Part shown: piece by piece, positions 1-30,708 of the stretch
Layout of the letters: the number at the start of each line of letters is the position of its first letter
Numbering within the stretch: the stretch's first letter is position 1
Source of the DNA: a virus
Lineage: Duplodnaviria > Caudoviricetes
Direction: 5' to 3' (one strand)
Length of the DNA: 30,708 bases
Virus record (IMG/VR): IMGVR_UViG_3300020043_002006
Span: 1 to 30,708 of that record
Translations under genes and position numbers: made by a program
Notes under the pieces: generated by a model
What the model saw: the letters and a program-made list of their open reading frames with translations, nothing else
The model's database searches: none
What the model was told of the DNA's origin: nothing

Positions 1-121
1 AAGATAAAAAAATACAAAGAGATAATTATAATATTAAATATTTTATATTATTATTTATTTTATTATTATTAATTATATATTATATTTTAAAAAAGTATTT
101 AAGAGTTATTTAAATACAAAA
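1..121. repeat. Terminal direct repeat, copy 1 (circular assembly overlap)
   Basis: Bases 1-121 are identical to 30588-30708 and contain the 3' end of the last ORF (30251..30700). Confidence 0.95.
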
Positions 122-276
122 GAAATAAAAGAAAAAGAAAAAAGGGTAAAAAAGAAAAAGAAAATAAAGAAAAAGCCTCTATAGAAAAACAAACTTTCAA
201 TATTTTACCTGTTCCAAGCATCATCCATTTTTATTAGGCTATGCAAGTCTTCAACGCATTGGTTAATTATTAAACG

Positions 277-311
277 CAAAACTACACAAAAAGTTACATT
301 GAAAAAACAAA
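277..311 (-). promoter_or_regulatory. Possible leftward Bacteroidota-type promoter
   Basis: Minus strand reads TTTG (311-308), 23 nt spacer, TAGTTTTG (284-277), matching TAnnTTTG. Confidence 0.3.
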
Positions 312-321
312 AGTTATTTAC

Positions 322-351
322 ATAAATGTTAATAGCTATTTTTTACATTTG
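322..351 (+). promoter_or_regulatory. Bacteroidota-type -7 promoter element with upstream ATAAATGTTAATA box
   Basis: TACATTTG at 344-351; same box and spacing recur at 6245-6274. Confidence 0.55.
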
Positions 352-355
352 ACAA

Positions 356-730
356 ATGAAAGTAAAACGTTCAACGATAGTAAAGAATTTAGATACTGTA
401 TTTTCTCAATACATTCGTTTACGTTATGCTAAAAATGAAATTGCTGAGTGTGTTACTTGTGGTAAAAAAGACCATTGGAAAAAACTTCAGTGTGGACACT
501 TTCAATCACGTAGACATTATTCAACACGTTGGGATGAAAATAACGTAGGTGTTCAATGTTACGGGTGTAATATTACAAATCAAGGTCAACAGTTTTTATT
601 TGCTAAATATTTAGGTTTAGATAAAGCTGAGGAAATGGTTTTAAAATCAAGGCAAATTGTTAAATTCACTGATGATGATTTGCAAGATATGATACTGCAC
701 TACAAAGAAAAGGTAAAAGAACTTTCTTAA
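356..730 (+). CDS. ninG: NinG/Rap-like recombination endonuclease
   Basis: LDTVFSQYIRLR, CVTCG, QCGHFQSR, TRWDENN, QCYGCN zinc/HNH-like pattern typical of lambda NinG family. Confidence 0.8.
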   Translation: MKVKRSTIVKNLDTVFSQYIRLRYAKNEIAECVTCGKKDHWKKLQCGHFQSRRHYSTRWDENNVGVQCYGCNITNQGQQFLFAKYLGLDKAEEMVLKSRQIVKFTDDDLQDMILHYKEKVKELS

Positions 731-758
731 TTTCTATTGTTTAATAATTGTTTGAATT

Positions 759-786
759 GGGTAGTTTAACAGCTACCCTTTTTTTT
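759..786 (+). terminator. Rho-independent terminator
   Basis: GGGTAGTT/AGCTACCC stem followed by T8. Confidence 0.85.
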
Positions 787-792
787 GCAATA

Positions 793-854
793 TGTTAAAG
801 TTTTGTTAAAAAATGAAATTATAGTTGCTAATTAAATTTGTCGTTATATATTTG
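793..854 (+). promoter_or_regulatory. Early host-sigma promoter with upstream TGTTAA direct repeats
   Basis: TTG 825-827, 19 nt spacer, TATATTTG 847-854; TGTTAA at 793 and 804. Confidence 0.7.
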
Positions 855-882
855 CTTCATCAAACAATAAATATTAAACATT

Positions 883-1314
883 ATGAAATTTTCAGATTTA
901 ACGCCCGAGCATTTTAATACAGCAAAGAAATATTTTTATGGTTGTAAAAATGAATCTTATAATAATTTTACATACCACTATTTTATTTTATTTAAAGAAA
1001 TTAACGAAAATAGTTTAATTTTTACAATATGTGAATTTGGTAAAGAAAAAGATATTATTTGTGATGCAAGTAATTTTACTTCTTCTATTTCATATTATAA
1101 ACATAATGGTGGTAATGTTGAAACTGCTATTGAAAACTCAAAAAAATTAATCAATCGTTCAGAAAATAAAATAATTGAATTAAATAATGAAATCGATTTT
1201 TTAAATACTAAAAGTAAAAAACCAATTACGTTTATAAAAAAAACAATAGCATCTAATAAAAGAGAAATAAAATTTCTTAATAAAATAATTATTGATTGTA
1301 AAAATTTAAAATAA
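883..1314 (+). CDS. Hypothetical early protein with C-terminal coiled coil
   Basis: 143-aa ORF directly after a promoter and A-rich leader; no recognisable motif. Confidence 0.65.
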   Translation: MKFSDLTPEHFNTAKKYFYGCKNESYNNFTYHYFILFKEINENSLIFTICEFGKEKDIICDASNFTSSISYYKHNGGNVETAIENSKKLINRSENKIIELNNEIDFLNTKSKKPITFIKKTIASNKREIKFLNKIIIDCKNLK

Positions 1315-1332
1315 CCTTAAAAACAATTACAA

Positions 1333-1503
1333 ATGAAAGATTTAATCGATTACCAAAGATTCCAAGTTGAAGCATTACAAAAACGCATTTGCGAACTTGA
1401 AAACAAATTAAACGATGTTAAAGCACATATATTTGAATTATGTGATGAAGAATGTCCTGAAGAGTATAAAACAATTATTAAACAAAAAACTTACGAATTA
1501 TGA
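1333..1503 (+). CDS. Small coiled-coil hypothetical protein (56 aa, not in ORF track)
   Basis: MKDLIDYQRFQVEALQKRICELENKL...; stop overlaps the ERF start (ATGA). Confidence 0.7.
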   Translation: MKDLIDYQRFQVEALQKRICELENKLNDVKAHIFELCDEECPEEYKTIIKQKTYEL

Positions 1504-2066
1504 AACAATTAATGTTAAACGAAAAGCTATCAAAAATTCAATTAGAATTTAAAGCTAACAAATCAAAATTTAATTCTTTTGGTAAATATAATTTTCGCTC
1601 TGCTGAAGATATATTAGAAGCATTAAAACCTTATAATGAAAAATATGGTGTATCTTTTACAATTACTGAAAAATTAATTTGTTTTGACCCACCTGTATTA
1701 AAATCAACTGCTAAAATTATTGATAACAATGGTATTAATGAAATAAAAGCGATTGCAATAGTTGGTGTAGATTTAAATCAAAAAGGTATGCAAGTGCCTC
1801 AGCAATATGGTTCAGCTTCATCTTATGGTAAAAAATACGCTTTAGGTAACCTTTTACTTATTGATGATACACAAGATGCTGATGCAACTAATACCCACGG
1901 AAAATCAGCTGCACCTGCTGAAGATGACCAAAAATGGTTAAACGTTAACACACCTGAGTTTACAAAAGCTATTGAATATTTAAAAAGTGGTGGAACTATT
2001 GAAGTTATCGAAAAAAAGTATAAATTAGCAGCCAAAACAAAACAAGAATTGTTAAAAGTTAAATAA
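1500..2066 (+). CDS. erf: ERF-family single-strand annealing protein
   Basis: FGKYNFRSAEDILEALKP and QQYGSASSYGKKYALGNLLLIDDTQDAD match the ERF signature. Confidence 0.85.
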   Translation: MKQLMLNEKLSKIQLEFKANKSKFNSFGKYNFRSAEDILEALKPYNEKYGVSFTITEKLICFDPPVLKSTAKIIDNNGINEIKAIAIVGVDLNQKGMQVPQQYGSASSYGKKYALGNLLLIDDTQDADATNTHGKSAAPAEDDQKWLNVNTPEFTKAIEYLKSGGTIEVIEKKYKLAAKTKQELLKVK

Positions 2067-2123
2067 TAAAAACTGAATAGCCGACAACAGAAAAAAAAGG
2101 TAGGCAAAGTAAATTTATATATT

Positions 2124-2429
2124 ATGAGTTCAATTATCAATTTGAGCATTAGAGTTGACAAACTACCAAAAGAAAAGTTTGTAATGGGTAAAGATGGAGC
2201 AGTTTATTATAACTGTACATTAAACATTAATGATGAAGCTAATCAATGGGGTCAAAACGTATCGTTAACTGATTCACAAACTAAAGAAGAACGTGATGCT
2301 AAAAAAGCTAAAAACTATTTAGGAAACGGTAACGTAGTTTGGACTGATGGAAACATTAAAGCAGTTAAAAAAGAAGGGCAACCTGCAACACAACAAGCTG
2401 CAGCAGTAGAAGTTGATTTACCATTTTAA
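2124..2429 (+). CDS. ssb: Probable single-stranded DNA-binding protein
   Basis: Small beta-rich protein after ERF; flexible tail ending in VDLPF, the SSB-type C-terminus. Confidence 0.7.
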   Translation: MSSIINLSIRVDKLPKEKFVMGKDGAVYYNCTLNINDEANQWGQNVSLTDSQTKEERDAKKAKNYLGNGNVVWTDGNIKAVKKEGQPATQQAAAVEVDLPF

Positions 2430-2436
2430 ATTAATC

Positions 2437-2461
2437 GGGTGGTGTAAAAGCCACCCTTTTT
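2437..2461 (+). terminator. Rho-independent terminator
   Basis: GGGTGG/CCACCC stem followed by T5. Confidence 0.75.
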
Positions 2462-2474
2462 AAATTAAACAATT

Positions 2475-2669
2475 ATGAAACAATTAGAAAAATACAAAAC
2501 CAATTTAAGATTAGAATTAAATAACGTATATAGTTACAATACTTTAGTAGCTATTATAGATTGGAAAACAAAAGAAATTTATCAGCAAAAACATTACAGC
2601 CAAACAACACAAAAACACATTAACTATGTAGCTGATAATTTTGATTTAATATTAATAAAAAACTTTTAA
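2475..2669 (+). CDS. Hypothetical protein
   Basis: 64-aa ORF with AAACAATT-ATG leader; VYSYNT..YSQTTQKHIN. Confidence 0.7.
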   Translation: MKQLEKYKTNLRLELNNVYSYNTLVAIIDWKTKEIYQQKHYSQTTQKHINYVADNFDLILIKNF

Positions 2670-2672
2670 GTT

Positions 2673-2891
2673 ATGAAATTATTTGAAGATGATTGGGGTG
2701 TAGATAATTCGCCAATAGATAATACTGAAATAACAACTACACTTTTATATTTTAGTACAGAAGAATTAAAAGAGTTTAAGGCATTATGCAAAAAAGGCAT
2801 AAGAAAAGAGTTTAATGAACAATACCAAGTAAAAGGTAATTTAAGCGATTTATTATTAATCATTTTAAGAGAAAAGTATGGAAACCTATAG
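2673..2891 (+). CDS. Small protein coupled to the TET gene (possible accessory/DNA-binding factor)
   Basis: 72 aa; overlaps TET start by 14 nt; acidic N-terminus then strand-helix-helix-like pattern. Confidence 0.65.
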   Translation: MKLFEDDWGVDNSPIDNTEITTTLLYFSTEELKEFKALCKKGIRKEFNEQYQVKGNLSDLLLIILREKYGNL

Positions 2892-3744
2892 ATTAAAAAA
2901 GCAATTAACCGACGAGCAAACTGCAGCGTTAAAAGGAAAGTATTTAAACGAAAAGCATTACGATACATTAATAACAGGTGATGCAGATGGTTACGATTCA
3001 AATGGTCGCCTTTTGTTTAAGTTTAGAAAAAACGCTATACCTATGGAAACTTTAAAACTTGGTGTAGATTCTTTTAAAGATAGTATTGAATTAACTGAAA
3101 GTAGGGGTATTGCAAGTGGCAGCAGCCACAAGCGTATAAGAAAAGATGGTTCAGTAAGTAACATAACAGTAGGTAACAAAGTTGAAAGTGGTAGCGTTGG
3201 TTATATGGATTCATCAGCTATGGTTAAATATTGTCGTAAAACTGCTTTTGCTAAAAACTATTTTGACAAGTTTACTGCAGGAATACCTTTTGTAAAATTC
3301 ATAGATAAAAAATATGAAGAATTGTGTCCTGAGCATTATGCAAAACAAATAGCAATAGCAAAAGGTACTAACAAAAATTATGTAATAGACAATACTGCTT
3401 TTACTACAATTACAGTTAACAAAAACTTTAGAACTGCAGTACATCAAGATGCAGGTGATTATCCTGATGGTTTTGGTAATTTAATTGCATATCGTGAAGG
3501 CGATTGGAAAGGTGGTTACTTTTGTTTACCTCAATACAAAGTAGCTATTGACTTACAAAACACCGATATTCTTTTTGTTGATGTACACAAATGGCACGGA
3601 AATACTGATTTTATAAACACTGATGATAACTTTTTACGAATTAGTTTTGTTTTATACTATCGTGAGTATATGTATAAGTGTAGCCAACCACAAGAAGAAC
3701 TACTTAAAATGAAAATGGAAAAAACAGGTTACTTAAATTTATAA
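2878..3744 (+). CDS. TET/JBP-family 2OG-Fe(II) dioxygenase (5-methylpyrimidine oxidase)
   Basis: TTITVNKNFRTAVHQDAGD (HxD), GGYFCLPQY, VHKWHGNT (distal His), RISFVLYYRE (2OG-binding Arg). Confidence 0.88.
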   Translation: METYRLKKQLTDEQTAALKGKYLNEKHYDTLITGDADGYDSNGRLLFKFRKNAIPMETLKLGVDSFKDSIELTESRGIASGSSHKRIRKDGSVSNITVGNKVESGSVGYMDSSAMVKYCRKTAFAKNYFDKFTAGIPFVKFIDKKYEELCPEHYAKQIAIAKGTNKNYVIDNTAFTTITVNKNFRTAVHQDAGDYPDGFGNLIAYREGDWKGGYFCLPQYKVAIDLQNTDILFVDVHKWHGNTDFINTDDNFLRISFVLYYREYMYKCSQPQEELLKMKMEKTGYLNL

Positions 3745-3746
3745 TT

Positions 3747-4511
3747 ATGGAACAATTAAATATATTCATACCAAGTAAAAACAGGGTTAATAATTCTACA
3801 CTATTAACTTTTGCTGAAACACAAAACGAAAAAATAACAATAGTTGTAGAACCACAAGATTATGAAAATTACTACAAAAAATTTCCAAATTTTGAATATT
3901 TAATTCTACCAATTAATGATGGTGGTATTACTTACGTAAGGAATTTCATAAAACAATATACAGAAGAAAACTCAATAAGTACTTATTGGCAATTAGACGA
4001 TGATTTAACAGGGTTTTTTAATAGAGAAGGAACAAAGTTAATCAGAACAGGTTTTGAAGCTTTATATTCAGCACAATTACAATTTAAATCAAATAAAATT
4101 GCTTTAGGTTCTTTGGAATATAGGCAATTTGCTTGGTCAGCAAGTAAAGAAATAATTTTAAATAGTTTTTGTGATTCTTGCGTTTATGTTGACAATTCAA
4201 AAATTACAGGTTTAAGGTATAGGGATTATGTATCAGGCAAAGAAGATAGGGATTTTGCTATGCAAGTAATTAAATTTGGGCAAACCACAGGTAGAACAAC
4301 ACTATATGCTTTTTCTGCTCCACCAAATGGAAGTAATGCAGGTGGTTTAAAAGAAACTTTTTACGATTTAGGAAAAGAAAAAATAGCAGTTGATAGAATG
4401 GTTGAATTATGGGGTGACCAAATTTGTGTTCCTATTGTAAAAGAAAGCGGCAGGAACGATATAAAAATTATGTGGAATAAAATAAATTCAACGCAAACAA
4501 GTTTATTTTAA
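3747..4511 (+). CDS. TET-associated glycosyltransferase (TAGT, GT-A fold)
   Basis: IFIPSKNR, IVVEPQD, GITYVRNFI, WQLDDD (DxD), KEDRDF, NAGGL; 2 nt downstream of TET. Confidence 0.82.
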   Translation: MEQLNIFIPSKNRVNNSTLLTFAETQNEKITIVVEPQDYENYYKKFPNFEYLILPINDGGITYVRNFIKQYTEENSISTYWQLDDDLTGFFNREGTKLIRTGFEALYSAQLQFKSNKIALGSLEYRQFAWSASKEIILNSFCDSCVYVDNSKITGLRYRDYVSGKEDRDFAMQVIKFGQTTGRTTLYAFSAPPNGSNAGGLKETFYDLGKEKIAVDRMVELWGDQICVPIVKESGRNDIKIMWNKINSTQTSLF

Positions 4512-4519
4512 TAAATAAC

Positions 4520-4527
4520 TATATTTG
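4520..4527 (+). promoter_or_regulatory. Bacteroidota-type -7 element upstream of ATPase/MTase
   Basis: TATATTTG 13 nt before ATG 4541. Confidence 0.5.
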
Positions 4528-4540
4528 CAAAAAATAAACA

Positions 4541-5392
4541 ATGACAGAACAAGAAACAATTAATAGGATGTTAATGCAAGTAATTGAAGAAGATTGCTAC
4601 ATTGACCCTGAACAAGAAATAGAATACCCAATACCTGCTATTAGTTGTGGTGAAAAAGAATACGAAACTAAAGATGGTTATAAATCTTTCCCTATTCCAA
4701 TAGGTACTTATGGTAACTTTTCATTTATACAAGCACCACCAAAGAGCAAAAAAACGTTCTTTATTTCGCTTTTAAGTGGTGTTTATATGAAAAATGAACT
4801 ACAAGGTTTTGGTGGTAATTTAAGAGGTAATAGACAAAATAAACACGTTATACATTTTGATACTGAACAAGGGAATTTCCACGCATCAATGGTTTTTAAA
4901 AGACCATTACAAATGACAGGCGATAAAGATGACAAATACCATACTTACGCATTACGCCAATTAGGATTTAAAGAACGTGTATCTTTTATTGAATATATAC
5001 TTTACGATAAATTAGAAGGTAACGATATTGGTTTAGTAATTATTGATGGGGTTGCTGATTTATGTGCTGATGTTAATAACATAGAACAAGCAAGTGAAGT
5101 TGTACAACATTTAATGCGATGGTCAAAGGAATTAAATTGCCATATTGTAACAGTTATTCACTCAAATTTCGGTACTGATAAACCAACAGGGCATTTAGGT
5201 AGCTTTTTAGAAAAGAAAGCAGAAACACAAATACAATTAGAACTAAACACAGTTAATAAAGAACTTGTTAAAGTAAGTTGTAAAAGAAGTAGAAACGCAA
5301 GTTTTGAAGATTTTAACTTTAAAGTAAACAATTTTGGATTGCCTCAAGTTGAAGGTGATTTATACGATATATTAAAAGATATAAAAATATGA
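4541..5392 (+). CDS. AAA+/RecA-fold ATPase, probable replicative helicase (RepA/AAA_25-like)
   Basis: Variant Walker A APPKSKKT, HFDTEQ, Walker B LVIIDG, VIH, GHLGS. Confidence 0.75.
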   Translation: MTEQETINRMLMQVIEEDCYIDPEQEIEYPIPAISCGEKEYETKDGYKSFPIPIGTYGNFSFIQAPPKSKKTFFISLLSGVYMKNELQGFGGNLRGNRQNKHVIHFDTEQGNFHASMVFKRPLQMTGDKDDKYHTYALRQLGFKERVSFIEYILYDKLEGNDIGLVIIDGVADLCADVNNIEQASEVVQHLMRWSKELNCHIVTVIHSNFGTDKPTGHLGSFLEKKAETQIQLELNTVNKELVKVSCKRSRNASFEDFNFKVNNFGLPQVEGDLYDILKDIKI

Positions 5393-6255
5393 TAGTATTA
5401 AGTTTATTTAATGGAATGAATACAGGCAGACAAGCATTGGAGAATGTCGGTATTAAAGTAGATAAATATTATTCAAGCGAAATTAAACCTTACGCTATTG
5501 AATTAACACAATATCATTTTCCTGATACTATACAAGTTGGTGATGTTACTAAATGGAGAGAATGGGATATAGATTGGAAAAGTATAGATTTAGTTTTATC
5601 AGGTTCACCTTGTCAAGATTTATCAGCAGCAGGTAAAAGAGCAGGAATAAATGGTAAAAAATCAAGTTTATTCTTTACTTTTGTTGAAATATTGGAACAT
5701 ATAAAATCTTTAAATCCTAATGTATTATTTCTTCAAGAAAACGTAGGTAGTGCATCAAAATTAGACGTTGGTATTATGTCGAGAGCATTGGGTGTTTATC
5801 CTGTTAGAATTAATTCGAGTTTAGTTACAGCTCAATTAAGGGATAGATATTATTGGAGTAATATAAGAACAAAAGAAGATGGTATGTTTGGTGATATTAT
5901 TACAGATATACCACAACCAAAAGATAAAGCAATAATGTTTAAAGATATTATCACAAGTGGTCAAGTTAAAAGAGATAAATCCCTTGCTTTATTAGAAAGA
6001 CAATCGTTTACTTATAAAGATAAATTTTCATTAAATGCACAAAAATTTTTAATAGAAAGAGAAAAATTTGGAACTAATTTAATTTATGAAGATAAATATA
6101 TTAGAATACCAAATAAAATAGAAATGTGCAGACTACAAGGTTTTCCTGATAATTATTGTGATATACTTACAACTGCAAAAGCAGGTAGTCTTTTAGGAGA
6201 TGGTTGGACTTTACCAATAATAGAACATATTTTTAGCTTTATAAATAAATGTTAA
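5389..6255 (+). CDS. DNA (cytosine-5)-methyltransferase
   Basis: Motif I LSLFNGMNTG, catalytic GSPCQ, motif VI QENV, motif VIII AQLRDRYYW, LQGFP, motif X LGDGW. Confidence 0.92.
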   Translation: MIVLSLFNGMNTGRQALENVGIKVDKYYSSEIKPYAIELTQYHFPDTIQVGDVTKWREWDIDWKSIDLVLSGSPCQDLSAAGKRAGINGKKSSLFFTFVEILEHIKSLNPNVLFLQENVGSASKLDVGIMSRALGVYPVRINSSLVTAQLRDRYYWSNIRTKEDGMFGDIITDIPQPKDKAIMFKDIITSGQVKRDKSLALLERQSFTYKDKFSLNAQKFLIEREKFGTNLIYEDKYIRIPNKIEMCRLQGFPDNYCDILTTAKAGSLLGDGWTLPIIEHIFSFINKC

Positions 6256-6274
6256 TAACTTATTAATAAATTTG
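6245..6274 (+). promoter_or_regulatory. Bacteroidota-type -7 element with ATAAATGTTAATA box
   Basis: TAAATTTG 6267-6274; geometry identical to 322-351. Confidence 0.55.
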
Positions 6275-6278
6275 AACA

Positions 6279-6575
6279 ATGGAAAACTTAACTATTAAAA
6301 ATCATTTGCAGGAATTACAAGTAAGCACATCAAGAATGTTAGTTTACAATTCTGATAACCCTGAATTATTATCTTACTTTAAGGATGTTACTTTTAAGTT
6401 AAAAATGATTGACCAATTATTACAAGTTGATTCTGTTTTAGATTGGTCTGCTGTTGAAGAATCATTTAAATCAATTCTAAGACAAGATTCTGAACTAACT
6501 GATGTTGATATACGCATTAGTTTAAAACCTGCAATAGAACAAAAGGTAGCGAAGATAACAGCTAAACTTTATTAA
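6279..6575 (+). CDS. Hypothetical protein
   Basis: 98-aa ORF in tightly packed + strand operon. Confidence 0.7.
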   Translation: MENLTIKNHLQELQVSTSRMLVYNSDNPELLSYFKDVTFKLKMIDQLLQVDSVLDWSAVEESFKSILRQDSELTDVDIRISLKPAIEQKVAKITAKLY

Positions 6576-6576
6576 T

Positions 6577-6789
6577 ATGATATACATTCTTTTGTTTTTT
6601 TCTTTAATCTTATTTTCTTTGACTTTAGCAGTTCAGCAAGGCAAGGATGTAAGATTAGCTATTATCAATGGTTTTATGATTGGTGCTTTATACGATGTAG
6701 AAGAAGCTGATGATGAAAAATGGCACACACTTCAAATATTAGTAGGAATACTATCAATAAACATTTTATGGGAAACGAATCAATATTAG
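6577..6789 (+). CDS. Small membrane-anchored hypothetical protein
   Basis: Hydrophobic N-terminus MIYILLFFSLILFSLTLAV. Confidence 0.65.
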   Translation: MIYILLFFSLILFSLTLAVQQGKDVRLAIINGFMIGALYDVEEADDEKWHTLQILVGILSINILWETNQY

Positions 6790-7289
6790 AACGAGTTGCT
6801 AAATACCATAGTGATTGGGTAGAACTTGCTGCAGTGTTTGACAAAGATTGGGCAGATGATATTGTGCAGGAAATGTATCTTTTATTGCATAAATACAAAG
6901 TAACCGAACAACAAATGTTTACCAATGGTAAAATCAATAGAGGTTATGTGTTTATCATAATAAGAAACATACATTTTCAACTTCATAATATTAGAAAACG
7001 TATTGATAAATGTGAATTAAACGATGATACATATAATTTAATTGATGATTATTCTGAAGAAAAAGAAATTGAATGGGATGATTTCAGAACAAAAGCAGAA
7101 CAAGAAGTTAATTCTTGGGAATGGTACGATAAAAAACTATTTACTTTGTATAGGGATAATAAAACATCAATAAGAAAATTAGCAAAAGAAACAGGTATTA
7201 GTTTTGTTTCTATATTTCACACATTAAAAGCTAATAAGCAAAAGCTGAAAAGATTATTACAAGAAGATTACGATAACTTAAAACTTTAA
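6768..7289 (+). CDS. Phage sigma-70/ECF-like sigma factor
   Basis: ADDIVQEMYL (region 2-like), GYVFIIIRN, C-terminal HTH SIRKLAKETGISFVSIFHTLK; ATG 6768 preferred over 6720 to limit overlap. Confidence 0.75.
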   Translation: MGNESILERVAKYHSDWVELAAVFDKDWADDIVQEMYLLLHKYKVTEQQMFTNGKINRGYVFIIIRNIHFQLHNIRKRIDKCELNDDTYNLIDDYSEEKEIEWDDFRTKAEQEVNSWEWYDKKLFTLYRDNKTSIRKLAKETGISFVSIFHTLKANKQKLKRLLQEDYDNLKL

Positions 7290-7537: not shown

Positions 7538-7906
7538 ATGGCAAAAAGAAAAGCAAAAGGACTTGGTGATACAGTAGAACAAATCACTAAAGCAACAGGT
7601 ATTAAAAAAGTAGTTGATGCAATTTCAGAAGCAACCGGTGTTGATTGTGGTTGTGGTGAACGTAAAGAACTATTGAATAAATTGTTTCCTTACAAACAAA
7701 CTGAATGTTTAAACGATGAAGATAACGAATGGTTAACACAATTCTTTTCAGTTACAAATAATCAGTTAACACCAAAGCAACAAACCAAAATTACAGACAT
7801 TTACAAGAATGTATTTAATCAAAGAATAGAGCCTTCAAATTGTGGTTCTTGTTGGAGAGATAGAATCAACGAATTAAAGAAAATACACGAAACACAAAAT
7901 AAATAG
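7538..7906 (+). CDS. Cys-containing hypothetical protein (possible Zn-binding)
   Basis: GLGDTVEQITKATGI, DCGCGER, NCGSC. Confidence 0.75.
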   Translation: MAKRKAKGLGDTVEQITKATGIKKVVDAISEATGVDCGCGERKELLNKLFPYKQTECLNDEDNEWLTQFFSVTNNQLTPKQQTKITDIYKNVFNQRIEPSNCGSCWRDRINELKKIHETQNK

Positions 7907-7907: not shown

Positions 7908-8570
7908 ATGTTTATAAACCCTAACAGAAGGTTCGAATTAACCATAGATAAAAAGGTTTTCAGTTCTTTAAATAAAGATAAAAAAATATCCTATCTGTTT
8001 AGGAGTTCAAATGTAGGAAAATGTGCTGCTTTATTTGATGATTACTATCATTCTGTAAATGGTAATATTATACCACAAGATTGGTTTACATATTATAGCA
8101 GAAAAATAGGTGTTGATGTAATTATAAAGGTGTCTAAAGAACTTGAAAAAATAACCAATTTAAGTTATGATAATTGTTTTAAATATGCAAAATTTAGAAT
8201 ACTTGGGCAAACTTGGAATGGTATGCTAAACGAAATTGATTTGATTAACGAACTTAAAAAAGAGTTTCCAAATATTCAATTTAAAAAAGCACCTTACAAT
8301 TTAGATGAAAACTATTTTACTGATTGGGAAGCATACACAAATGGAAAGTTATTTTTAGGTTTACAAATAAAGCCAATAACGTATCAGTATATGAATACAC
8401 CTTATCAGAATCAGGCAAAGTTAAACCACGAAGCACAAAGGCAAAAGTATAAAGATGAATTTAAAGTTGCACATTTTCTGCTATATTATGAAGATAATAA
8501 ACTACACGAAAAGCAAAAAGTAATAGATAAAATAAATACATTATTAATAAATTTAATAGAAGTTAGATGA
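7908..8570 (+). CDS. Putative PD-(D/E)xK restriction-fold endonuclease, MjaI-like
   Basis: GQTWNG..NEI, LDENYFTD, LGLQIKPITY resemble the D...(Q/S)IKPxTY core I recall for the MjaI family; not verified by search. Confidence 0.5.
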   Translation: MFINPNRRFELTIDKKVFSSLNKDKKISYLFRSSNVGKCAALFDDYYHSVNGNIIPQDWFTYYSRKIGVDVIIKVSKELEKITNLSYDNCFKYAKFRILGQTWNGMLNEIDLINELKKEFPNIQFKKAPYNLDENYFTDWEAYTNGKLFLGLQIKPITYQYMNTPYQNQAKLNHEAQRQKYKDEFKVAHFLLYYEDNKLHEKQKVIDKINTLLINLIEVR

Positions 8571-8917
8571 ACAACATACAATTAGAATATTTAAAGCAAG
8601 TAATACTATCACAGTTATTATTAGAATGCAATGAAAATTTACGTTTTACAGTACAATACAAGCAACAAATTAAGAATAGAATAAACTTACTTAACAAAGA
8701 TTTAGAAAGTGTAGTACATAAAGAATATACAAGTATTTATAAAACAGACCCTGAAATGACTACTAACATTTTAAGTAAGATTGAAAGTTTGGTTTCTAAA
8801 TTAAGTACTTCAACACTTGATGAGTTAATTATGATAGATGCAGTTATTGAAAAATACAACGATAACAAAGAATGGTTTAAAGAATATGCTGAAGCTGAAT
8901 TTTTAAAGATTGAATAA
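8567..8917 (+). CDS. Hypothetical helical protein
   Basis: 116-aa ORF, ATGA-coupled to the upstream gene. Confidence 0.7.
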   Translation: MNNIQLEYLKQVILSQLLLECNENLRFTVQYKQQIKNRINLLNKDLESVVHKEYTSIYKTDPEMTTNILSKIESLVSKLSTSTLDELIMIDAVIEKYNDNKEWFKEYAEAEFLKIE

Positions 8918-23566: not shown

Positions 23567-23585
23567 TTTTTGAATAACCAATTTC

Positions 23586-23620: not shown

Positions 23621-23644
23621 AATAACATATAAAAATATATAACT

Positions 23645-24172
23645 ATGGCTTGTGATTTATCAAGTGGAAGATTAGAAGTATGTAAAGATTCAGTAGGTGG
23701 CTTAAAAGCGGTTTATTTCGTTAATTACGGAGACGCAACAGGTTATACTTACGATGCTACAAATACCGACGTAATCGATGCAGTAGCAGGAACTCCTTCT
23801 GCTTACAAATACGATTTAAAAGGTGCTTCTACATTTACACAAAACGTAAATAGCTCACGTGAGAATGGTACAACATTTTTCGAGCAAGTATTGGAATTAA
23901 CATTTAAAAAATTAACTGTTAAAGACCACAAAGAATTAAAATTAATGGCTTACGGACGCCCTCAAGTTATTGTAGAAGATAACAACGGAAATTTCTTCTA
24001 TGCAGGTTTAGAACACGGAATGGATGTAACAGGTGGTACTATCGTAACAGGTGGTGCTATGGGTGATTTAAGTGGATATACTTTAACGTTAACAGGAATG
24101 GAACAAGTACCTGCTAACTTTATTGGTGACACGTTAACTGCTGCAGGATTTACAGTAGTTGTTGGTTCTTAA
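23645..24172 (+). CDS. Probable major tail tube protein
   Basis: 175 aa, high-expression codon bias, MACDL..GR..CKD.VGG, GYTLTLTG; own terminator. Confidence 0.7.
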   Translation: MACDLSSGRLEVCKDSVGGLKAVYFVNYGDATGYTYDATNTDVIDAVAGTPSAYKYDLKGASTFTQNVNSSRENGTTFFEQVLELTFKKLTVKDHKELKLMAYGRPQVIVEDNNGNFFYAGLEHGMDVTGGTIVTGGAMGDLSGYTLTLTGMEQVPANFIGDTLTAAGFTVVVGS

Positions 24173-24193
24173 TAATCAACTTTAGATTAAATT

Positions 24194-24222
24194 AAGGGTA
24201 GCTTTTTAGTTACCCTTTTTTT
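24194..24222 (+). terminator. Rho-independent terminator
   Basis: AAGGGTAGCT/AGTTACCCTT stem plus T-run. Confidence 0.85.
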
Positions 24223-24228
24223 GTTTTA

Positions 24229-24256
24229 ACAATTAACTACATTATTTATTTTTAAA
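24229..24256 (+). promoter_or_regulatory. Candidate late promoter (copy 5)
   Basis: ACAA-N12-TTTATTTTTAAA. Confidence 0.55.
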
Positions 24257-24264
24257 TAAAAACA

Positions 24265-24594
24265 ATGATAATTCTAAAAGAGCAAGAAGCACCACAAAAC
24301 CTTTATGCCACTATTGATGGTTTAGAAGCTGATGCTATTGTTTTACGTGATGAAGAAACTAATACAGAAGAAACTATTGAATGCGTATTTTCGATTGATA
24401 AATATTACGCAGTTACTAATTTGGTTTTTCCGATAATACAAAATAAATTCTACACACTTACTATTTTAAATGGTACTGATGTAGTTTACAAAGATAAAAT
24501 ATTTTGCACTAATCAAATAATAGAACAATTTAGTATAAACAAAGATGATTATATTCAAAGAACTTCTGAAAACGAATACATAATTTATGGATAA
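24265..24594 (+). CDS. Structural protein (possible head closure)
   Basis: 109 aa beta-rich, upstream of portal. Confidence 0.5.
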   Translation: MIILKEQEAPQNLYATIDGLEADAIVLRDEETNTEETIECVFSIDKYYAVTNLVFPIIQNKFYTLTILNGTDVVYKDKIFCTNQIIEQFSINKDDYIQRTSENEYIIYG

Positions 24595-26365
24595 CGTACA
24601 CATTTTAAGTTTAAGCGCTTATAATTCACCTGTAATAACAGAATCTAAAAATAAAGAGTTTGTTGAATATGGTGAAGATAACAACTATTTTCAATACTTA
24701 ATTGATAGATTTTTGTACTCGAATACAAATCACGCTATCATTACAGGTGTTGCCAATATGATTTATGGAAAAGGTTTAGATGCTACTGATTCAAACAGAA
24801 AGCCAAACGAATACGCACAAATGATTTCTATTGTAAAAAAGGATTGTTTGCGTAAAGTATCATTGGAACGTAAGTTACTTGGTATGGCTGCTATGCAGGT
24901 TATTTACCTGAATGGTAAAGTTAAATCTGTTGAACATTTTCCTATGCACACATTAAGAGCAGAAAAATGTAACGATAAAGGAGAAATTGAAGCGTGGTAT
25001 TACCATCCTGATTGGTCTAAATATAAAAAAGGTGATGAATTAAAACGCATACCTGCTTTTAAATTTGGTAATGGTAAAGAAGTTGAATTGTACGTTATTA
25101 AACCTTATGTATCGGGTTATCATTATTACACGCCTATTGATTATAGTGGTGCTTTGCCTTATGCTATGTTAGAGCAAGAGGTTTCTGATTACTTGATTAA
25201 TGATGTAATGAATGGTTTTAGTGGTACTAAAGTAATTAACTTTAATAATAACATACCACCTGAAGAAAAACGCCAAGAAGTAGCAAGTGAAGTTAAACGT
25301 AAATTAACAGGTTCAAAAGGTGATAAAGTAATTGTATCATTTAACGCAAGTGCAGATAATAAAACTACTGTTGATGACATTCCTTTAAACGATGCTCCTG
25401 AGCATTATCAATATTTAAGTACTGAGTGTTTTGAAAAATTAATAGTTGGTCACAGAGTTACTTCACCAATGCTTTTAGGTATTCGTGATACAGGTGGTGG
25501 TTTAAGTAATAATGCTGATGAAATTGAAACTGCAACACGTTTATTTGACAATATTGTTATTAGACCATACCAATTAGAAATCATTGAAGCTATTGATGAA
25601 ATATTAGCAGTTAATGGTATCGCTTTAAACCTATATTTTAAGACAATACAGCCACTTGATTTTATTGATGTAAATACACTTAACGCAGAAACAAACGAAG
25701 AAGAAACAGGCGTTAAAATGTCTAAGGTGTGCTGTTCGACTGATTCTACTTTAGATGATGAAATAGCTGATGCTTTAATTGATTTAGGTGAAGAACCACG
25801 TGCAAATTGGTTATTGGTTGATGAAAGTGAAGTCGATTACGATAACGATGATGCTGAAAACGAATTATTAGCTAAAGAACCAAAACAAAGTTTACTATCT
25901 AAAGTTTACAATTTTGTAAGCACAGGTAATGCAAGACCAAACGCTAAAAGTGAGCAAGATGAAAACATTGATGGTATTCGTTTTATTACACGTTACGTTT
26001 ATGCAGGTGATACTAATGCTAAAAGCAGATTGTTTTGCAAAAAAATGTCTGATGCTAATAAGATATACCGAAAAGAAGATATTATAAGAATGTCAGAACA
26101 AGCAGTAAACAAAGGATGGGGTCCAAAAGGTGCTGATACTTATTCAATTTGGTTATATAAAGGTGGTGGTGCTTGTCACCATAGATGGAACAAACAAGTG
26201 TATGCAAGTTTTGAGGGTGTAAACATTGATGTTAATTCACCAAAAGCAAAACAAATTGCAGGTCGTAAAGCTGAAGCATATGGATATACAATTAAGAATC
26301 CTGAATTAGTTTCACAACGACCAATAGATATGCCGAACAAAGGATTTTTACCTAAAAACAATTAA
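24587..26365 (+). CDS. Portal protein with C-terminal extension
   Basis: YGEDN.Y, NGFS, GHRVTSPMLLGI, NNADEI, IRPYQ in the first ~370 aa; extension with SRLFC and GGGACHHRW. Confidence 0.75.
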   Translation: MDNVHILSLSAYNSPVITESKNKEFVEYGEDNNYFQYLIDRFLYSNTNHAIITGVANMIYGKGLDATDSNRKPNEYAQMISIVKKDCLRKVSLERKLLGMAAMQVIYLNGKVKSVEHFPMHTLRAEKCNDKGEIEAWYYHPDWSKYKKGDELKRIPAFKFGNGKEVELYVIKPYVSGYHYYTPIDYSGALPYAMLEQEVSDYLINDVMNGFSGTKVINFNNNIPPEEKRQEVASEVKRKLTGSKGDKVIVSFNASADNKTTVDDIPLNDAPEHYQYLSTECFEKLIVGHRVTSPMLLGIRDTGGGLSNNADEIETATRLFDNIVIRPYQLEIIEAIDEILAVNGIALNLYFKTIQPLDFIDVNTLNAETNEEETGVKMSKVCCSTDSTLDDEIADALIDLGEEPRANWLLVDESEVDYDNDDAENELLAKEPKQSLLSKVYNFVSTGNARPNAKSEQDENIDGIRFITRYVYAGDTNAKSRLFCKKMSDANKIYRKEDIIRMSEQAVNKGWGPKGADTYSIWLYKGGGACHHRWNKQVYASFEGVNIDVNSPKAKQIAGRKAEAYGYTIKNPELVSQRPIDMPNKGFLPKNN

Positions 26366-26368
26366 CAA

Positions 26369-26881
26369 ATGGCTTACGCATTATTAATAAGTACAGATGA
26401 TGTAAAGAAATTCACTATTCTAAATGGAAATTTGGATGTAGATGATTTCATTCAATATATAAAAATAGCACAAGATATAACTATTCAAAACTATTTAGGA
26501 ACTGAATTATATAACAAGTTTCAAACCTTGATTATAAGTGGTGATATTAGTTTAAGTGGTAACGTTAAATACAAGAACCTGTTAACTGAATACATTAAAC
26601 CTATGTTAGTGCATTTTGCTATGGTTCAATATTTACCATTTGCTGCATATACAATAGCTAATAAAGGTGTATTTAAACACACAAGTGAAAACGCTACAAG
26701 TGTTGAAAAAAATGAAATTGATTTCTTAGTAGAAAAAGAACGTGATATTGCACAACACTATACTCAACGTTTTATTGATTATATGTGTTTTAACAATGCT
26801 GATTTTCCTGAATATAATAATAATTCAAATGGGGATATGTACCCTGATACAGATAATTTTTATGGGTCTTGGGTGTTGTAG
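26369..26881 (+). CDS. Probable head-tail adaptor
   Basis: 170 aa helical after portal; IKIAQD..IQNYLGT.LY. Confidence 0.6.
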   Translation: MAYALLISTDDVKKFTILNGNLDVDDFIQYIKIAQDITIQNYLGTELYNKFQTLIISGDISLSGNVKYKNLLTEYIKPMLVHFAMVQYLPFAAYTIANKGVFKHTSENATSVEKNEIDFLVEKERDIAQHYTQRFIDYMCFNNADFPEYNNNSNGDMYPDTDNFYGSWVL

Positions 26882-26964
26882 CAAAAAGCAAAGAAAAAAA
26901 GTAGGCAAATACGAAAAGCCGAAACAAGAAAACAAAAAGAAGTTAGAAACATATTTAAGTAAAA

Positions 26965-27195
26965 ATGGCAAATAACATAAATTGGGGACAGGGTGCAAAC
27001 AATGACATTTATTGGGGTCAAGGTGCAGTAACTAATACTATTGGTTGGGGTTCTGTTTACTCTGTAAGTTGGAGTGGTGAAACTGAATTATTAGGTGATG
27101 AAGGAAAAGATGCAATAGATTTTAGAACACGTGTACTTGCTGATGAAGGTGTTTTTGAAGCATTTAATTGTTTAACAAACGAAATTAATTTTTAA
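26965..27195 (+). CDS. Small structural protein with WG repeats
   Basis: NWGQG, YWGQG, GWGS repeats; C-terminal DFRTRVLAD motif. Confidence 0.7.
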   Translation: MANNINWGQGANNDIYWGQGAVTNTIGWGSVYSVSWSGETELLGDEGKDAIDFRTRVLADEGVFEAFNCLTNEINF

Positions 27196-27198
27196 TAT

Positions 27199-28434
27199 AT
27201 GAGTTTATTTGATTCGGCAAGTTTGGTTGTCACGCCTAATGGTACAAAGGCATCTAAATTATACGCTATAAAACCAACTGATGGAAGTGGTGATTTAAGT
27301 GTAACAAGAGCAACAACAGCAACAAGAGTTAATTCAAGTGGATTGGTTGAAAGTGTAGCTACTAATGTACCAAGATTAGACTATACCAATGGAACGTGTC
27401 CGAGTATATTAGTAGAGCCACAGAGAACAAATAGCCAAAGATATTCAGAAGATTTATCTAATGGCTCGTATTATGCAACAGGTAACGCATCAATATCTAC
27501 AAATCAAACTACTGCTCCTGATGGTAATACTACTGCAGATAAGTTAATAGAAAGCAATACAAACGCAAGACACGAACTATACACAGGCTCACTAACTTAT
27601 AGTGGTACAACTTCAATTTCATTTTTTGCTAAGGTAGCAGGTAGAAGATATTTAGCTTGTTTCTTAGGTGGCGACCCATCAAAAGGAGGTGCTATATTTG
27701 ATTTGCAAGGTGGAGTAGTTTCTTTAACAAGTGGAGGCACAACTGCTAATATTCAAAACTTTGGTAACGGTTGGTATCGCTGTAGTTTTACTTCAATTTT
27801 AACGGGTAGTAGTTCATTATATACTTGTTTGAGAACAAATGCAAGTACTGTAGATGTTCAAACTTATTTAGGAGATGGTACTTCAGGTGTATATATTTGG
27901 GGTATGCAACAAGAGTTAACTTCAAGTTATCCTACTTCATATATTCCTACGGTAGCAAGTTCAGTTACTCGTAATGCTGATGTTATTTCTAAAACAGGAA
28001 TAAGTAGTTTAATTGGTCAAACTGAGGGGACTATGTTTTTGGATGTTAATGTAACAAAAGATGGCTCAGGATATTATCCTTTAGGAAATCTAATAGGTGC
28101 AACTTCAAGTATCTACATAGGTATAAATACTTTCATTACAACAGGTAATATTTATGCTGAGATAAGAAACACAACACAACAAGCGTTAATTAGTTCAAGT
28201 ATAAACAGTGGTAGATGTAAAATAGCTTTAGCATATAAGGCTAACGATATTGCTTTATATATTAATGGTAATTTAATAGGTACTGATACGAGTGCTACAA
28301 TTCCTGCTACTTCTGCTTTTAGTTTTGAATACGATGTTAGTATAGGTAATAGAAACACTAAAAATATTAACGATGTTGTACTTTGGAAAACAAGATTAAC
28401 TAATGCTGAGTTAGCAACCATCACAAGTTTATAA
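27199..28434 (+). CDS. Tail fibre/receptor-binding protein with lectin-like beta-sandwich domains
   Basis: TRATTATRVN, PRLDY, LVEPQRTN, GNGWYRC, PTSYIPT, RNAD, LYING (LamG/ConA-like). Confidence 0.65.
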   Translation: MSLFDSASLVVTPNGTKASKLYAIKPTDGSGDLSVTRATTATRVNSSGLVESVATNVPRLDYTNGTCPSILVEPQRTNSQRYSEDLSNGSYYATGNASISTNQTTAPDGNTTADKLIESNTNARHELYTGSLTYSGTTSISFFAKVAGRRYLACFLGGDPSKGGAIFDLQGGVVSLTSGGTTANIQNFGNGWYRCSFTSILTGSSSLYTCLRTNASTVDVQTYLGDGTSGVYIWGMQQELTSSYPTSYIPTVASSVTRNADVISKTGISSLIGQTEGTMFLDVNVTKDGSGYYPLGNLIGATSSIYIGINTFITTGNIYAEIRNTTQQALISSSINSGRCKIALAYKANDIALYINGNLIGTDTSATIPATSAFSFEYDVSIGNRNTKNINDVVLWKTRLTNAELATITSL

Positions 28435-29132
28435 TGGCCGCAGTTTACTTACATAGAAAAGAGTATGATAATTCTATTTATTACGTAGGTATAGGTAATA
28501 GCGAAAAAAGAGCAAGGGAAATTAGAGGTAGAAGTGAATATTGGACAAGAGTATTTAATAAATATGGTAGAAATATAGATATTGTTGCTAATAATATACC
28601 TTTAGAAGATGCAAAAGAATTGGAAATATTTTTAATACAACAAATAGGTATTGATAATTTATGTAATCATACTTTAGGCGGAGAAGGTTTTTTTGGTGGA
28701 AAACATACAGAAGAAACTAAAAGAAAAATAAGCGCCAAATCAAAAGGTAGAATCACAACGAAAGAAACCAAAGCCAAGATAGGTAAAAAGTTAAAAGGTC
28801 ATCAAAATTACAATTTAAGTCATACAGATGAATCTAAAGCTAAAATATCAGCAGCTTTTAAAGGAAAGAAAAGAAGTGAGTATTTTTGCAAACAAGTTAA
28901 AAAATCAAAAATAGGATATTGCCCAAGTAGACAAGCCATAGAAAACGGAGTAAAAAAAAGAAAAGAAAATGCATCTTTAATAATTGAATTGAATAGCGGT
29001 TTTATAGGTAAAATTTGGGAAATAGAAAACAAATTTAATATTGACAGAAAAGCTGTTTATTATAATTGTAAAAAAGAAAAAGCCATTTTAACAAGAGAAT
29101 GGAAAGGGTTGAATTTTAAAAAATATAAATAA
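28434..29132 (+). CDS. Free-standing GIY-YIG homing endonuclease with NUMOD3 repeats
   Basis: VYLH..IYYVGIG..R, E..LI, LCN.T.GGEG, then HTEETKRKIS, TKETKAKIG, HTDESKAKIS. Confidence 0.8.
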   Translation: MAAVYLHRKEYDNSIYYVGIGNSEKRAREIRGRSEYWTRVFNKYGRNIDIVANNIPLEDAKELEIFLIQQIGIDNLCNHTLGGEGFFGGKHTEETKRKISAKSKGRITTKETKAKIGKKLKGHQNYNLSHTDESKAKISAAFKGKKRSEYFCKQVKKSKIGYCPSRQAIENGVKKRKENASLIIELNSGFIGKIWEIENKFNIDRKAVYYNCKKEKAILTREWKGLNFKKYK

Positions 29133-29138
29133 AACACA

Positions 29139-29492
29139 ATGAATATAGCAAAATTACAATACAAAGATAAAGAAACTGCAATAGCTGATTTAATCGCTAA
29201 AGGAGTTTACAAAGAGGTAAAAGATTTAAACGATAATATTACTTTAGCTTATGGCGATGGTATTCAGGCTGTAGTTGAAATAGGTTTAATCGTTTTACAA
29301 AACGGAATTTACAACGAAAACTTTGAAGAAATAACTGCACCTGTTTACGCTGATGGCTATCACTTTGATGTTATGAGTGAAAACAAAATTAACTTTGGTA
29401 AAAACGAAATTGAAGTTAACAATCCTAAGCACACATTTGCAGGATATGATAAAGTAGAAGTATTAGAACCTTTTACTTTAGGTAATGAGTAG
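29139..29492 (+). CDS. Hypothetical protein, probably fibre-associated
   Basis: 117 aa; DGYHFDVM, NPKHTFAG. Confidence 0.6.
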   Translation: MNIAKLQYKDKETAIADLIAKGVYKEVKDLNDNITLAYGDGIQAVVEIGLIVLQNGIYNENFEEITAPVYADGYHFDVMSENKINFGKNEIEVNNPKHTFAGYDKVEVLEPFTLGNE

Positions 29493-29685
29493 AAAAGAAA
29501 AAATAGACTTGTTCCTATCTAAATGGGTATCAAGAAAATTAACAGTTTTTGTTGTAGCTTCTGCAGGTTTATTCTCAGGAGTTATAACATCAACTGATTG
29601 GGTTATTATAGGAACTTCTTACATAACTATTGAAGGAGTAACTAATATTGTTGAACGTTTAATGAAAGCTAAAAATGTCGCTTAA
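29485..29685 (+). CDS. Putative holin
   Basis: 66 aa, SRKL followed by two hydrophobic segments; upstream of endolysin. Confidence 0.55.
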   Translation: MSRKEKIDLFLSKWVSRKLTVFVVASAGLFSGVITSTDWVIIGTSYITIEGVTNIVERLMKAKNVA

Positions 29686-29842
29686 CGATTTGAAATTATA
29701 CGCATTAAATTCTGCTGCTATGGCAATTAGCTTTTCTAATGTAGAAGCTACTTTAAAGATATTCCTTTTGTGCATATCTATTGTGTATACTATTATGAAA
29801 ATTATTGAATTAGCAAAAAAGAAAAATGATGAGAGAGATTAA
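29675..29842 (+). CDS. Second small membrane protein (holin/antiholin candidate; 55 aa, not in ORF track)
   Basis: MSLNDLKLY..LKIFLLCISIVYTIMKII.. with charged tail; overlaps both neighbours. Confidence 0.6.
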   Translation: MSLNDLKLYALNSAAMAISFSNVEATLKIFLLCISIVYTIMKIIELAKKKNDERD

Positions 29843-30239
29843 ATACATAGTAATTCACTGCACAGCTTCTAAACCAAACACAACTAAAGAAGCTATTTTA
29901 AATTATTGGAAAAATACTTTAAAGTGGAAAACTGTAGGTTATCATCGTTTAATTGATGCAAATGGTATTATTCACGAACTTGCAAAATACGAACAAATAA
30001 CCAATGGTGTTAAAGGTTATAATTCTGAATCAATACATTTTAGCTACATTGGTGGAATAGATGAATCAGGTAGACCAAAAGATACACGTACAATTAAACA
30101 AAAAGAAAGTTTATTGTATTTAATTAAACAAGCTAAAAAGCAATTCCCTAACGCTATTGTTCAAGGTCACAAAGATTTTAAAGGTGTAGTTAAAGCGTGT
30201 CCATCATTTGATGCTAAAAGCGAATATAAAGCTATTTAA
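29826..30239 (+). CDS. Endolysin, N-acetylmuramoyl-L-alanine amidase (T7 lysozyme-like)
   Basis: IVIHCTA, GYH, GYNS.SI..SYIGG, GHKD, KACPSFD. Confidence 0.92.
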   Translation: MMREIKYIVIHCTASKPNTTKEAILNYWKNTLKWKTVGYHRLIDANGIIHELAKYEQITNGVKGYNSESIHFSYIGGIDESGRPKDTRTIKQKESLLYLIKQAKKQFPNAIVQGHKDFKGVVKACPSFDAKSEYKAI

Positions 30240-30250
30240 AGCACTTTAAT

Positions 30251-30700
30251 ATGAAAATAGTATATTTACTTGTTTTATTACTTTTAATGTCTTGTGGCTC
30301 ACGTAAAGTAGCTATAAACAAACAAGAAAAGCAAATTGAAGTTACTGAAGTTACAAATACTACTGAAGTTGATAGTTCAAATGTTGAAGTTAAATTTAAT
30401 TATGAATTAGAAACTTTTACTATTGAAGCAAAAGATAATTTAAAACCATTTGTGTATAATGGTAAAACGTATTTAAACGTTGTTTTAAAACACGAAAAGA
30501 AAAAAGATAATAGTTTATATAAAAAAGATATTAGAATTGTTAAAACACAAGCTAAACAATCAAATATAAAATTTAAAGAAGTAATTAAAGATAAAAAAAT
30601 ACAAAGAGATAATTATAATATTAAATATTTTATATTATTATTTATTTTATTATTATTAATTATATATTATATTTTAAAAAAGTATTTAAGAGTTATTTAA
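30251..30700 (+). CDS. Lipoprotein with C-terminal TM helix (unimolecular spanin candidate)
   Basis: Lipobox LLMS-C; C-terminal YFILLFILLLLIIYYIL followed by basic residues; follows endolysin. Confidence 0.65.
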   Translation: MKIVYLLVLLLLMSCGSRKVAINKQEKQIEVTEVTNTTEVDSSNVEVKFNYELETFTIEAKDNLKPFVYNGKTYLNVVLKHEKKKDNSLYKKDIRIVKTQAKQSNIKFKEVIKDKKIQRDNYNIKYFILLFILLLLIIYYILKKYLRVI

Positions 30701-30708
30701 ATACAAAA
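30588..30708. repeat. Terminal direct repeat, copy 2
   Basis: Identical to 1-121. Confidence 0.95.

Follow-up and report, generated by a model that had tools for sequence, protein, structure and literature searches.

The virus record IMGVR_UViG_3300020043_002006 (Duplodnaviria; Caudoviricetes), whose entire 30,708 bases form the window analysed here, is devoid of several short DNA words, and the loss of two of them can probably be traced to an enzyme that the phage itself encodes. Specifically, an orphan nuclease of the MjaI family, encoded at positions 7908–8570, likely cuts CTAG and CCAG/CTGG (together, CYAG) in a genome that contains neither word, such that self would be marked by the absence of sites.

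The original prediction, made by scanning the letters by eye, held that short words are avoided throughout this genome, and direct counts bear this out:

1–30,708, both strands: record without CTAG, CCAG/CTGG, GATC or CATG (direct counts)

Each of CCAG, CTGG, CTAG, GATC and CATG occurs zero times, where a Markov model expects 98.6 copies of CCAG/CTGG, 62 of CTAG, 66 of GATC and 67 of CATG, and where 300 synonymous-codon shuffles expect 86.6, 53.6, 43.5 and 34.4, respectively. The depletion holds under both nulls, and with codon-shuffle z-scores of −7.7 to −12.6 these are the four lowest tetramers of all. CCTG (62) and CAGG (104) are frequent although CCAG/CTGG is absent, and other palindromes are present as described (AGCT 103, GTAC 85, TGCA 153, ACGT 98, TCGA 22, GGCC 3, GCGC 6). 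Codon choice bends around the forbidden words: NCN codons preceding glycine end in A in 86 of 89 cases and in T in none (T is used 763 times elsewhere), the capsid gene uses NCA in six of six such positions, aspartate is always written GAC when the next codon starts with C (18 of 18, versus 47 of 560 elsewhere), and histidine before a G-initial codon is CAC in 15 of 15 (26 of 90 elsewhere). Both orientations of the word are empty, which rules out a strand-biased, Type III-like loss. Furthermore, because every five-base context of CCAG with a real expectation is empty (ACCAG 46, TCCAG 25, CCAGA 25, CCAGC 24 and CCAGT 37 expected), no single longer site explains the loss of CCAG. Selection by nucleases, as originally proposed, is supported as the cause of the word loss; the source of the nuclease is a separate matter, and for CTAG and CCAG the best candidate lies within the window:

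7908–8570, + strand: MjaI-family (PF09568), putative PD-(D/E)XK endonuclease gene, 220 amino acids, assigned from homologue profiles; no adjacent methyltransferase
8232–8375, + strand: predicted catalytic residues E109, D139 and Q153-x-K155-P156, from the homologue alignment

All 65 homologues of this protein carry PF09568 (RE_MjaI), 27 of 35 aligned members match RE_MjaI, and P0121, which is 95% identical to the window protein, scores 24.1 bits against a curated cut-off of 22.7 (P0122 scores 27.0). MjaI clusters are the Atlas neighbours of the window nuclease at 0.97, and alignment of the profile to L254, a host enzyme that is paired with a methylase, gives an E value of 2.7e-11. MjaI itself is specific for CTAG (PMC2615612). 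Residues E109, D139, Q153 and K155 are invariant in 35 of 35 aligned homologues and also line up with the L254 enzyme; their match to the PD-(D/E)XK pattern predicts a catalytic role for E109, D139 and Q153-x-K155-P156, and the protein is predicted to cleave DNA. The structure model has a predicted local distance difference test score of 93.7, and a search of the PDB returned no sequence relative. Synonymous codon changes in the gene number 45–55 and non-synonymous changes 8–14, an excess that indicates purifying selection.

The nuclease sits in a swappable slot between two genes, with no cognate methyltransferase beside it:

7538–7906, + strand: left neighbour of the nuclease slot, no assigned function; contains the lone CCGG (7635–7638)
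8567–8917, + strand: right neighbour of the slot, no assigned function; nuclease-independent sampling anchor

Across relatives this slot is filled by one or another of at least four nuclease-like genes, with products of 220, 130–133, 125 and 149 amino acids. Three complete genomes that carry the nuclease and have terminal repeats (G470–G472) contain no open reading frame (ORF) with a methyltransferase motif, only 23 of 83 carrier sequences have any such ORF, and the C5 methylase of the window is missing from the other carriers compared. Of 401 Flavobacteriales genomes, 7 have a chromosomal member of the MjaI family, 6 of them above the cut-off, and in all six of these an amino-methyltransferase lies adjacent.

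The presence of the gene is associated with the absence of the two words. We fetched 82 viral carrier loci, of which 47 came from one search and a further 35 from the top 80 of 208 in another, and CTAG is missing from every one of them (0 in 865,588 bases, with 2,247 expected), while exact zeros are found for CCAG in 66, CATG in 57, CCGG in 52 and GATC in 41. These loci range in guanine-cytosine (GC) content from 0.24 to 0.38 and vary in their avoidance of GATC, CATG and CCGG. Distant carriers with 40–47% identity (L284, L270 and L294) have no CCAG and no CTAG, yet keep GATC or CATG; in L284, for example, GATC occurs 101 times, with 99 expected. In a contrast of 32 long genomes (11 carriers and 21 non-carriers, five of the latter 70–84% complete), CTAG is at zero in 11 of 11 carriers versus 2 of 21 non-carriers, and four or fewer copies of CCAG are found in 8 of 11 versus 2 of 21. 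When 136 tetramers are ranked by how well they separate the two groups, CTAG is first and CCAG third; GATC (p 0.75), CATG (p 0.19) and CCGG (p 1.0) do not separate them. A second sample comprised 160 loci anchored on capsid or terminase genes, which are related and partly overlapping, and 133 of these had enough expectation to be scored: 29 of the 30 loci with near-zero CCAG also have near-zero CTAG and none has normal CTAG, and 24 loci combine near-zero CTAG with normal CCAG.

It is worth considering here the original suggestion that CCAG, CTGG, CTAG and CCGG collapse to a single degenerate palindrome, CYRG, removed by one symmetric specificity. CYRG is what one would expect a symmetric homodimer to recognise if it were relaxed at the inner pair, and CCGG is low overall in carriers (107 seen, 272 expected) and occurs just once in the window, at the position first reported; with only 2.4–5.1 copies expected there, however, the window is uninformative on this word. 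The relatives settle the matter differently: CCGG is close to expectation in genomes free of CCAG and CTAG (9 seen with 10 expected in G005, 6 with 8 in G001, 5 with 7 in G022 and 31 with 33 in the carrier L294), it does not distinguish carriers from non-carriers, and Flavobacterium has a CCGG system of its own, FpsJI, listed in PMC4752239. A single CYRG specificity is therefore barely credible, and the avoided pattern fits CYAG/CTRG instead.

Carriers that retain some CCAG are informative, as they point to one part of the enzyme:

8400–8462, + strand: helix 165–185 after the catalytic strand in the structure model, with N173-H174; residue 173 covaries with CCAG retention

There are 16 such carriers: two have a single copy, two have copies only in an end stretch (in L241 this stretch has a GC content of 0.39, versus 0.28), and 12 have CCAG throughout, of which five have it almost only as CCAGA, one almost only as CCAGT, two mostly as CCAGA and four in all contexts. 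N173-H174 is found at 62 loci, 58 of them without CCAG, and the other four are the single-copy and end-stretch cases. All 10 loci with F or L at position 173 keep CCAG, several solely as CCAGA or CCAGT, and all seven with R or Y have none. L272, which has no CCAG, and L276, whose 21 copies are all CCAGA, share 86% identity, with differences in helix 165–185. PD-(D/E)XK enzymes in general contact DNA through such a helix; by analogy, this one may do so as well, and CCAG would then be a second site that the enzyme reads through it.

Relatives without the gene show what the backbone looks like in its absence. In a sample anchored on the right neighbour of the slot, 23 of 48 close loci have the nuclease, 19 have a 133-amino-acid gene in its place and six have something else or are cut off, and in none of 32 distant loci does the nuclease lie directly upstream. 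In this distant gene-free sister clade CCAG is not depleted (813 seen, 705 expected). Across 54 gene-free loci, CCAG is regained with distance from a carrier (rho −0.68): the mean observed-to-expected ratio is 0.09 for the 18 loci with at least 88% identity to a carrier, 0.92 for the 22 at 80–88% and 0.82 for the 14 below that. One genome, G024 (L101–L102), has 27 CCAG/CTGG and 6 CTAG in its first 8 kb and 1 and 0, respectively, in the remaining 17 kb, a mosaic pattern that suggests recent module exchange.

Several observations weigh against a phage enzyme as the cause of both losses, and these are best considered together. With regard to the protein, hmmscan reported no Pfam match for the window protein itself and its subfamily scores near the cut-off; the best fold matches are weak and below the level that the tool treats as clear (Hjc, Z 7.8, root-mean-square deviation 3.1 over 99 aligned residues, and likewise BsaWI, Z 7.3, 3.0 over 123), and Foldseek gave no match for the model at an E value of 0.001. 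With regard to the association, the loci are related: the gene changes state six times on the backbone tree and yields only five independent pairs, in which CTAG goes the same way in 4.9 (p 0.0625) and CCAG goes the same way in 2.9 and the opposite way never (p 0.25), a consistent direction with too few pairs to reach 0.05. The residue rule also has exceptions: L213 combines N173-H174 with five copies of CCAG, all within a terminal stretch that does not look foreign in GC content, two of the three loci with H at position 173 keep CCAG and one does not, and on a tree built without the helix segment the residue switched three times (p 0.25), which offers few contrasts. Furthermore, CTAG is scarce in the distant gene-free clade (35 seen, 574 expected) and nearly absent from cultured Flavobacterium phages, so that its loss must also have another cause. 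Finally, some genomes without the gene lack the words: 11 of the 19 close loci with the 133-amino-acid slot nuclease have no CCAG; the complete, gene-free G001, 86.9% identical to the nearest carrier compared, has neither CCAG nor CTAG; and G033 (L109:4772), which is 81% complete and in which the gene was not found, lacks CCAGA, CCAGC and CCAGG and keeps CCAGT and CTAG. The 11 loci are near copies of carriers, and G001 is the exception. G001 keeps CAATTG (23 seen, 19 expected) and carries an amino-methyltransferase of its own. A different nuclease-like gene, of 163 amino acids, follows the sigma-like gene in G033.

The family-wide scarcity of CTAG invites the idea of a passenger gene, in which the sites would have been lost to host restriction beforehand and the nuclease, active or not, would persist only where they are missing. 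The low CTAG of relatives without the gene (observed-to-expected ratio 0.33 across the family) is in keeping with this, and a genome poor in CTAG would be easier for the gene to enter. Yet a passenger accounts for CTAG and not for CCAG, which is normal in clades without the gene; the invariance of the catalytic residues, together with purifying selection, suggests that the enzyme is used; and the zero for CTAG is exact over 866 kb of carriers, versus scattered sites in non-carriers. We consider a mere passenger highly improbable, although this scenario may describe the route by which the gene first entered. CTAG is scarce throughout the family in any case, and it is the loss of CCAG that tracks the gene.

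The strongest competitor, which we nonetheless regard as unlikely, is a division of labour in which the phage enzyme is a plain CTAG cutter and CCAG/CTGG was lost to a host system common to the hosts of most carriers, either through a CCAG or CYAG restriction-modification system or through several longer sites (CCAGT, CCAGA and CCWGG, for instance). CCAG and CYAG are known methylation motifs (PMC4190342, PMC4759559, PMC4752239): lactococcal phage methylases mark CC6mAG and CY6mAG (PMC4190342), F. psychrophilum has CCNGG (PMC4752239) and, as a further point against the phage enzyme, CCAG is the methylated motif of M.Gel16401IV and of an Exiguobacterium, two unrelated bacteria, in PMC4752239. 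The CCAG-free genomes without the gene noted above (G001 and 11 of 19 close loci) fit this scheme, as does G033, where CCAGV is lost, CTAG is normal and no gene was found. On the other side, carriers that differ widely in GC content and in the other words they avoid have the loss of CCAG in common, and its retention follows a residue of the phage enzyme, as the comparison of L272 with L276 illustrates. Among the Flavobacteriaceae rows examined in PMC4752239 there is no CCAG motif, and a single query with the lactococcal CCAG methylase found no relative in the 401 Flavobacteriales genomes, a weak search that does not demonstrate absence. Depletion of CCAG in the host lineage itself was rejected, since WWCCAGWW is kept in 401 of 401 Flavobacteriales genomes.

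Another possibility is that mutational or repair bias, or a set of DNA modification enzymes, removes the words. The window does likely encode a cytosine hypermodification set, at 2878–6255:

2878–3744, + strand: TET/JBP dioxygenase
3747–4511, + strand: TET-associated glycosyltransferase (TAGT)
5389–6255, + strand: C5 methyltransferase

C-to-T changes also connect CCAG to CTAG. However, both words are lost and not exchanged, the switch in synonymous codons is confined to the forbidden contexts, host genomes keep CCAG, TET is patchy in the family (3 of 41 related records), and four relatives without the sites, G001, G005, G011 and G022, have no C5 methylase. This explanation has next to no chance of being correct.

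The remaining avoided words are a different matter. GATC, CATG and CCGG, together with several 6-mers, likely form a separate and ordinary layer, the avoidance of host Type II restriction, and here the original appeal to host defence probably stands for GATC and CATG; for CTAG and CCAG the window's own nuclease is the better candidate. Carriers do not differ from non-carriers in their low numbers of GATC, CATG and CCGG, and three cultured Flavobacterium phages are low in GATC or CATG, keep CCAG and do not match the nuclease profile. The Flavobacteriaceae methylomes listed in PMC4752239 include GATC, CCGG, CCNGG, CATG and GGTTAG, with M.FpsJIV (GATC), M.FpsJI (CCGG), and M.Gli15749I and M.Lsp48II (CATG) among the systems of the host family. 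In the account given in PMC6286503, complete loss of short sites is the pattern expected of avoidance of orthodox Type II systems, and the sites of Type I, IIG and III host systems are rarely avoided by phages. Phosphorothioate systems (Ssp, Dnd and type 4 bacteriophage exclusion, BREX) were considered and rejected: the reported consensi examined are NCTC, GAAG/GACG, GAGC, CCA, CAG, CCGG, GATC and GAAC; of these, CCA and CAG occur in the window about as often as expected, and GATC alone could fit. BREX type 4 in particular, with NCTC and GAAG/GACG, is rejected as a source of CCAG loss.

Additional words are depleted in the window, including CAATTG (0 seen, 17 expected), AAGCTT (1 and 14) and GGTWAG (0 and 12), as well as GAATTC, CTTAAG and GATATC; CTAAG/CTTAG is half-depleted there and near zero in many close relatives. 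GCNNGC is absent (about 11 expected), and in a scan of gapped bipartite motifs only this word and near-variants of CTNAG/GGTWAG were conspicuous. Elsewhere in the family, a related clade (L147, L150–L158, L162–L166, G453, G455 and L114) avoids the mirror word CAGG/CCTG and keeps CCAG; in G453, for example, CAGG/CCTG occurs 6 times, with 61 expected. Neither G453 nor G455 yielded an MjaI-like gene, and inspection of their ORFs by eye, with no library scan, recognised no second orphan nuclease that might account for this loss. Near the window nuclease in the Atlas, rows 10–21 are TaqI-family endonuclease clusters, mostly viral, and TCGA is at zero in several relatives (G027 and G033), inviting speculation that further missing words may be due to orphan nucleases of other kinds.

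The remaining features of the record place the nuclease in a phage whose host is likely of the Flavobacterium type, judging from the relatives of its proteins:

6720–7289, + strand: sigma-factor-like gene (phrog_1740, E value 4.5e-5), upstream of the slot in carriers whose backbones differ (synteny)
28,434–29,132, + strand: homing-endonuclease-like gene with a NUMOD3 repeat, inserted within the tail region
29,829–30,239, + strand: amidase endolysin, a host indicator, 83–85% identical to phages of Flavobacterium sp. LMO6/LMO9

The terminase shows 56% identity to F. psychrophilum phages, and Nonlabens phage P12024 matches the capsid protein at 35% identity. All genes lie on the + strand; the proteins recognised include the terminase, an ERF recombinase, NinG, the amidase and the TET/TAGT/C5-methylase set, and no integrase was seen among the 35 proteins scanned.

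Taken as a mechanism, the nuclease would be expressed in the lytic phase, as part of the early-middle gene block, and would cut CTAG and, one inner substitution away, CCAG/CTGG, with the doubly changed CCGG spared. Even one remaining site would carry a cost for the phage, so that every copy would have been eliminated through synonymous changes, and the enzyme would fragment the host chromosome and any co-infecting DNA that bears sites. Host chromosomes are poor in CTAG: in five genomes with a related amidase, WWCTAGWW occurs 212–311 times versus 1,674–6,482 for WWCCAGWW. CCAG is about 6–30 times commoner than CTAG in the host chromosome, and a widened site would add many more cuts. We favour breakdown of host DNA as the main use of the enzyme, with competition possibly helping to hold gene-free kin site-free.

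It is informative to set this proposal beside known systems. T4 endonucleases II and IV degrade host DNA, and T4 is spared by base modification. The window nuclease would similarly cut host DNA and spare the phage, albeit through the absence of sites and with an enzyme of another fold family. The Type II enzymes R.MjaI and MthZI (PF09568, CTAG) share the family with it; conserved acidic residues and the QIKP motif are common to it and methylase-paired host members, and CTAG is gone from every carrier locus; unlike them, the window enzyme is phage-borne, lacks a partner methylase, would have CCAG/CTGG as a second site and belongs to a distinct subfamily near the Pfam cut-off. The restriction-site avoidance described by Rusinov et al. 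(2018, PMC6286503) likewise involves short sites that disappear completely through synonymous changes, and fits GATC, CATG, CCGG and the 6-mers, but there the enzyme is the host's, whereas for CTAG and CCAG the best candidate is a gene of the phage. Solitary endonucleases, of which Oliveira et al. (2014, PMC4176335) report 12 in 831 phage genomes, resemble it in having no methylase; unlike those genes, the window nuclease has a likely site that is indicated by genome composition. Lastly, the lactococcal 936-phage enzymes M.Phi15I, M.Phi93II and M.Phi145II (PMC4190342) provide a precedent for CCAG/CYAG as a recognition sequence, but they are methylases in phages that keep their sites (126 CCAG in phi15, with 134 expected), and no sequence link to them was found. 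In the literature searched, which included few subscription papers, neither a methylase-free phage restriction enzyme with self-avoidance nor a CYAG nuclease is described.

It is about an even bet that the window phage represents a widespread family of Flavobacteriales phages in which a slot enzyme without a methylase has widened its site from CTAG to CYAG, with a single recognition helix tuning the specificity, the genome serving as a read-out of that specificity (full CYAG, CCAGB, CCAGV or CTAG only), the enzyme acting as a weapon against both host and co-infecting phages, and gene-free kin being kept site-free. Carriers vary in which contexts of CCAG are retained and in a single helix of the nuclease, so that genome composition yields a prediction of enzyme specificity, and the family would offer natural variants of a four-base cutter with an asymmetric site, to which no described restriction enzyme in the literature searched corresponds. 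Words missing from phage genomes are usually read as scars of host restriction and are used to infer hosts. Here, one of the missing words likely points instead to the phage's own enzyme, and hence to a way of discriminating self from non-self without a chemical mark.

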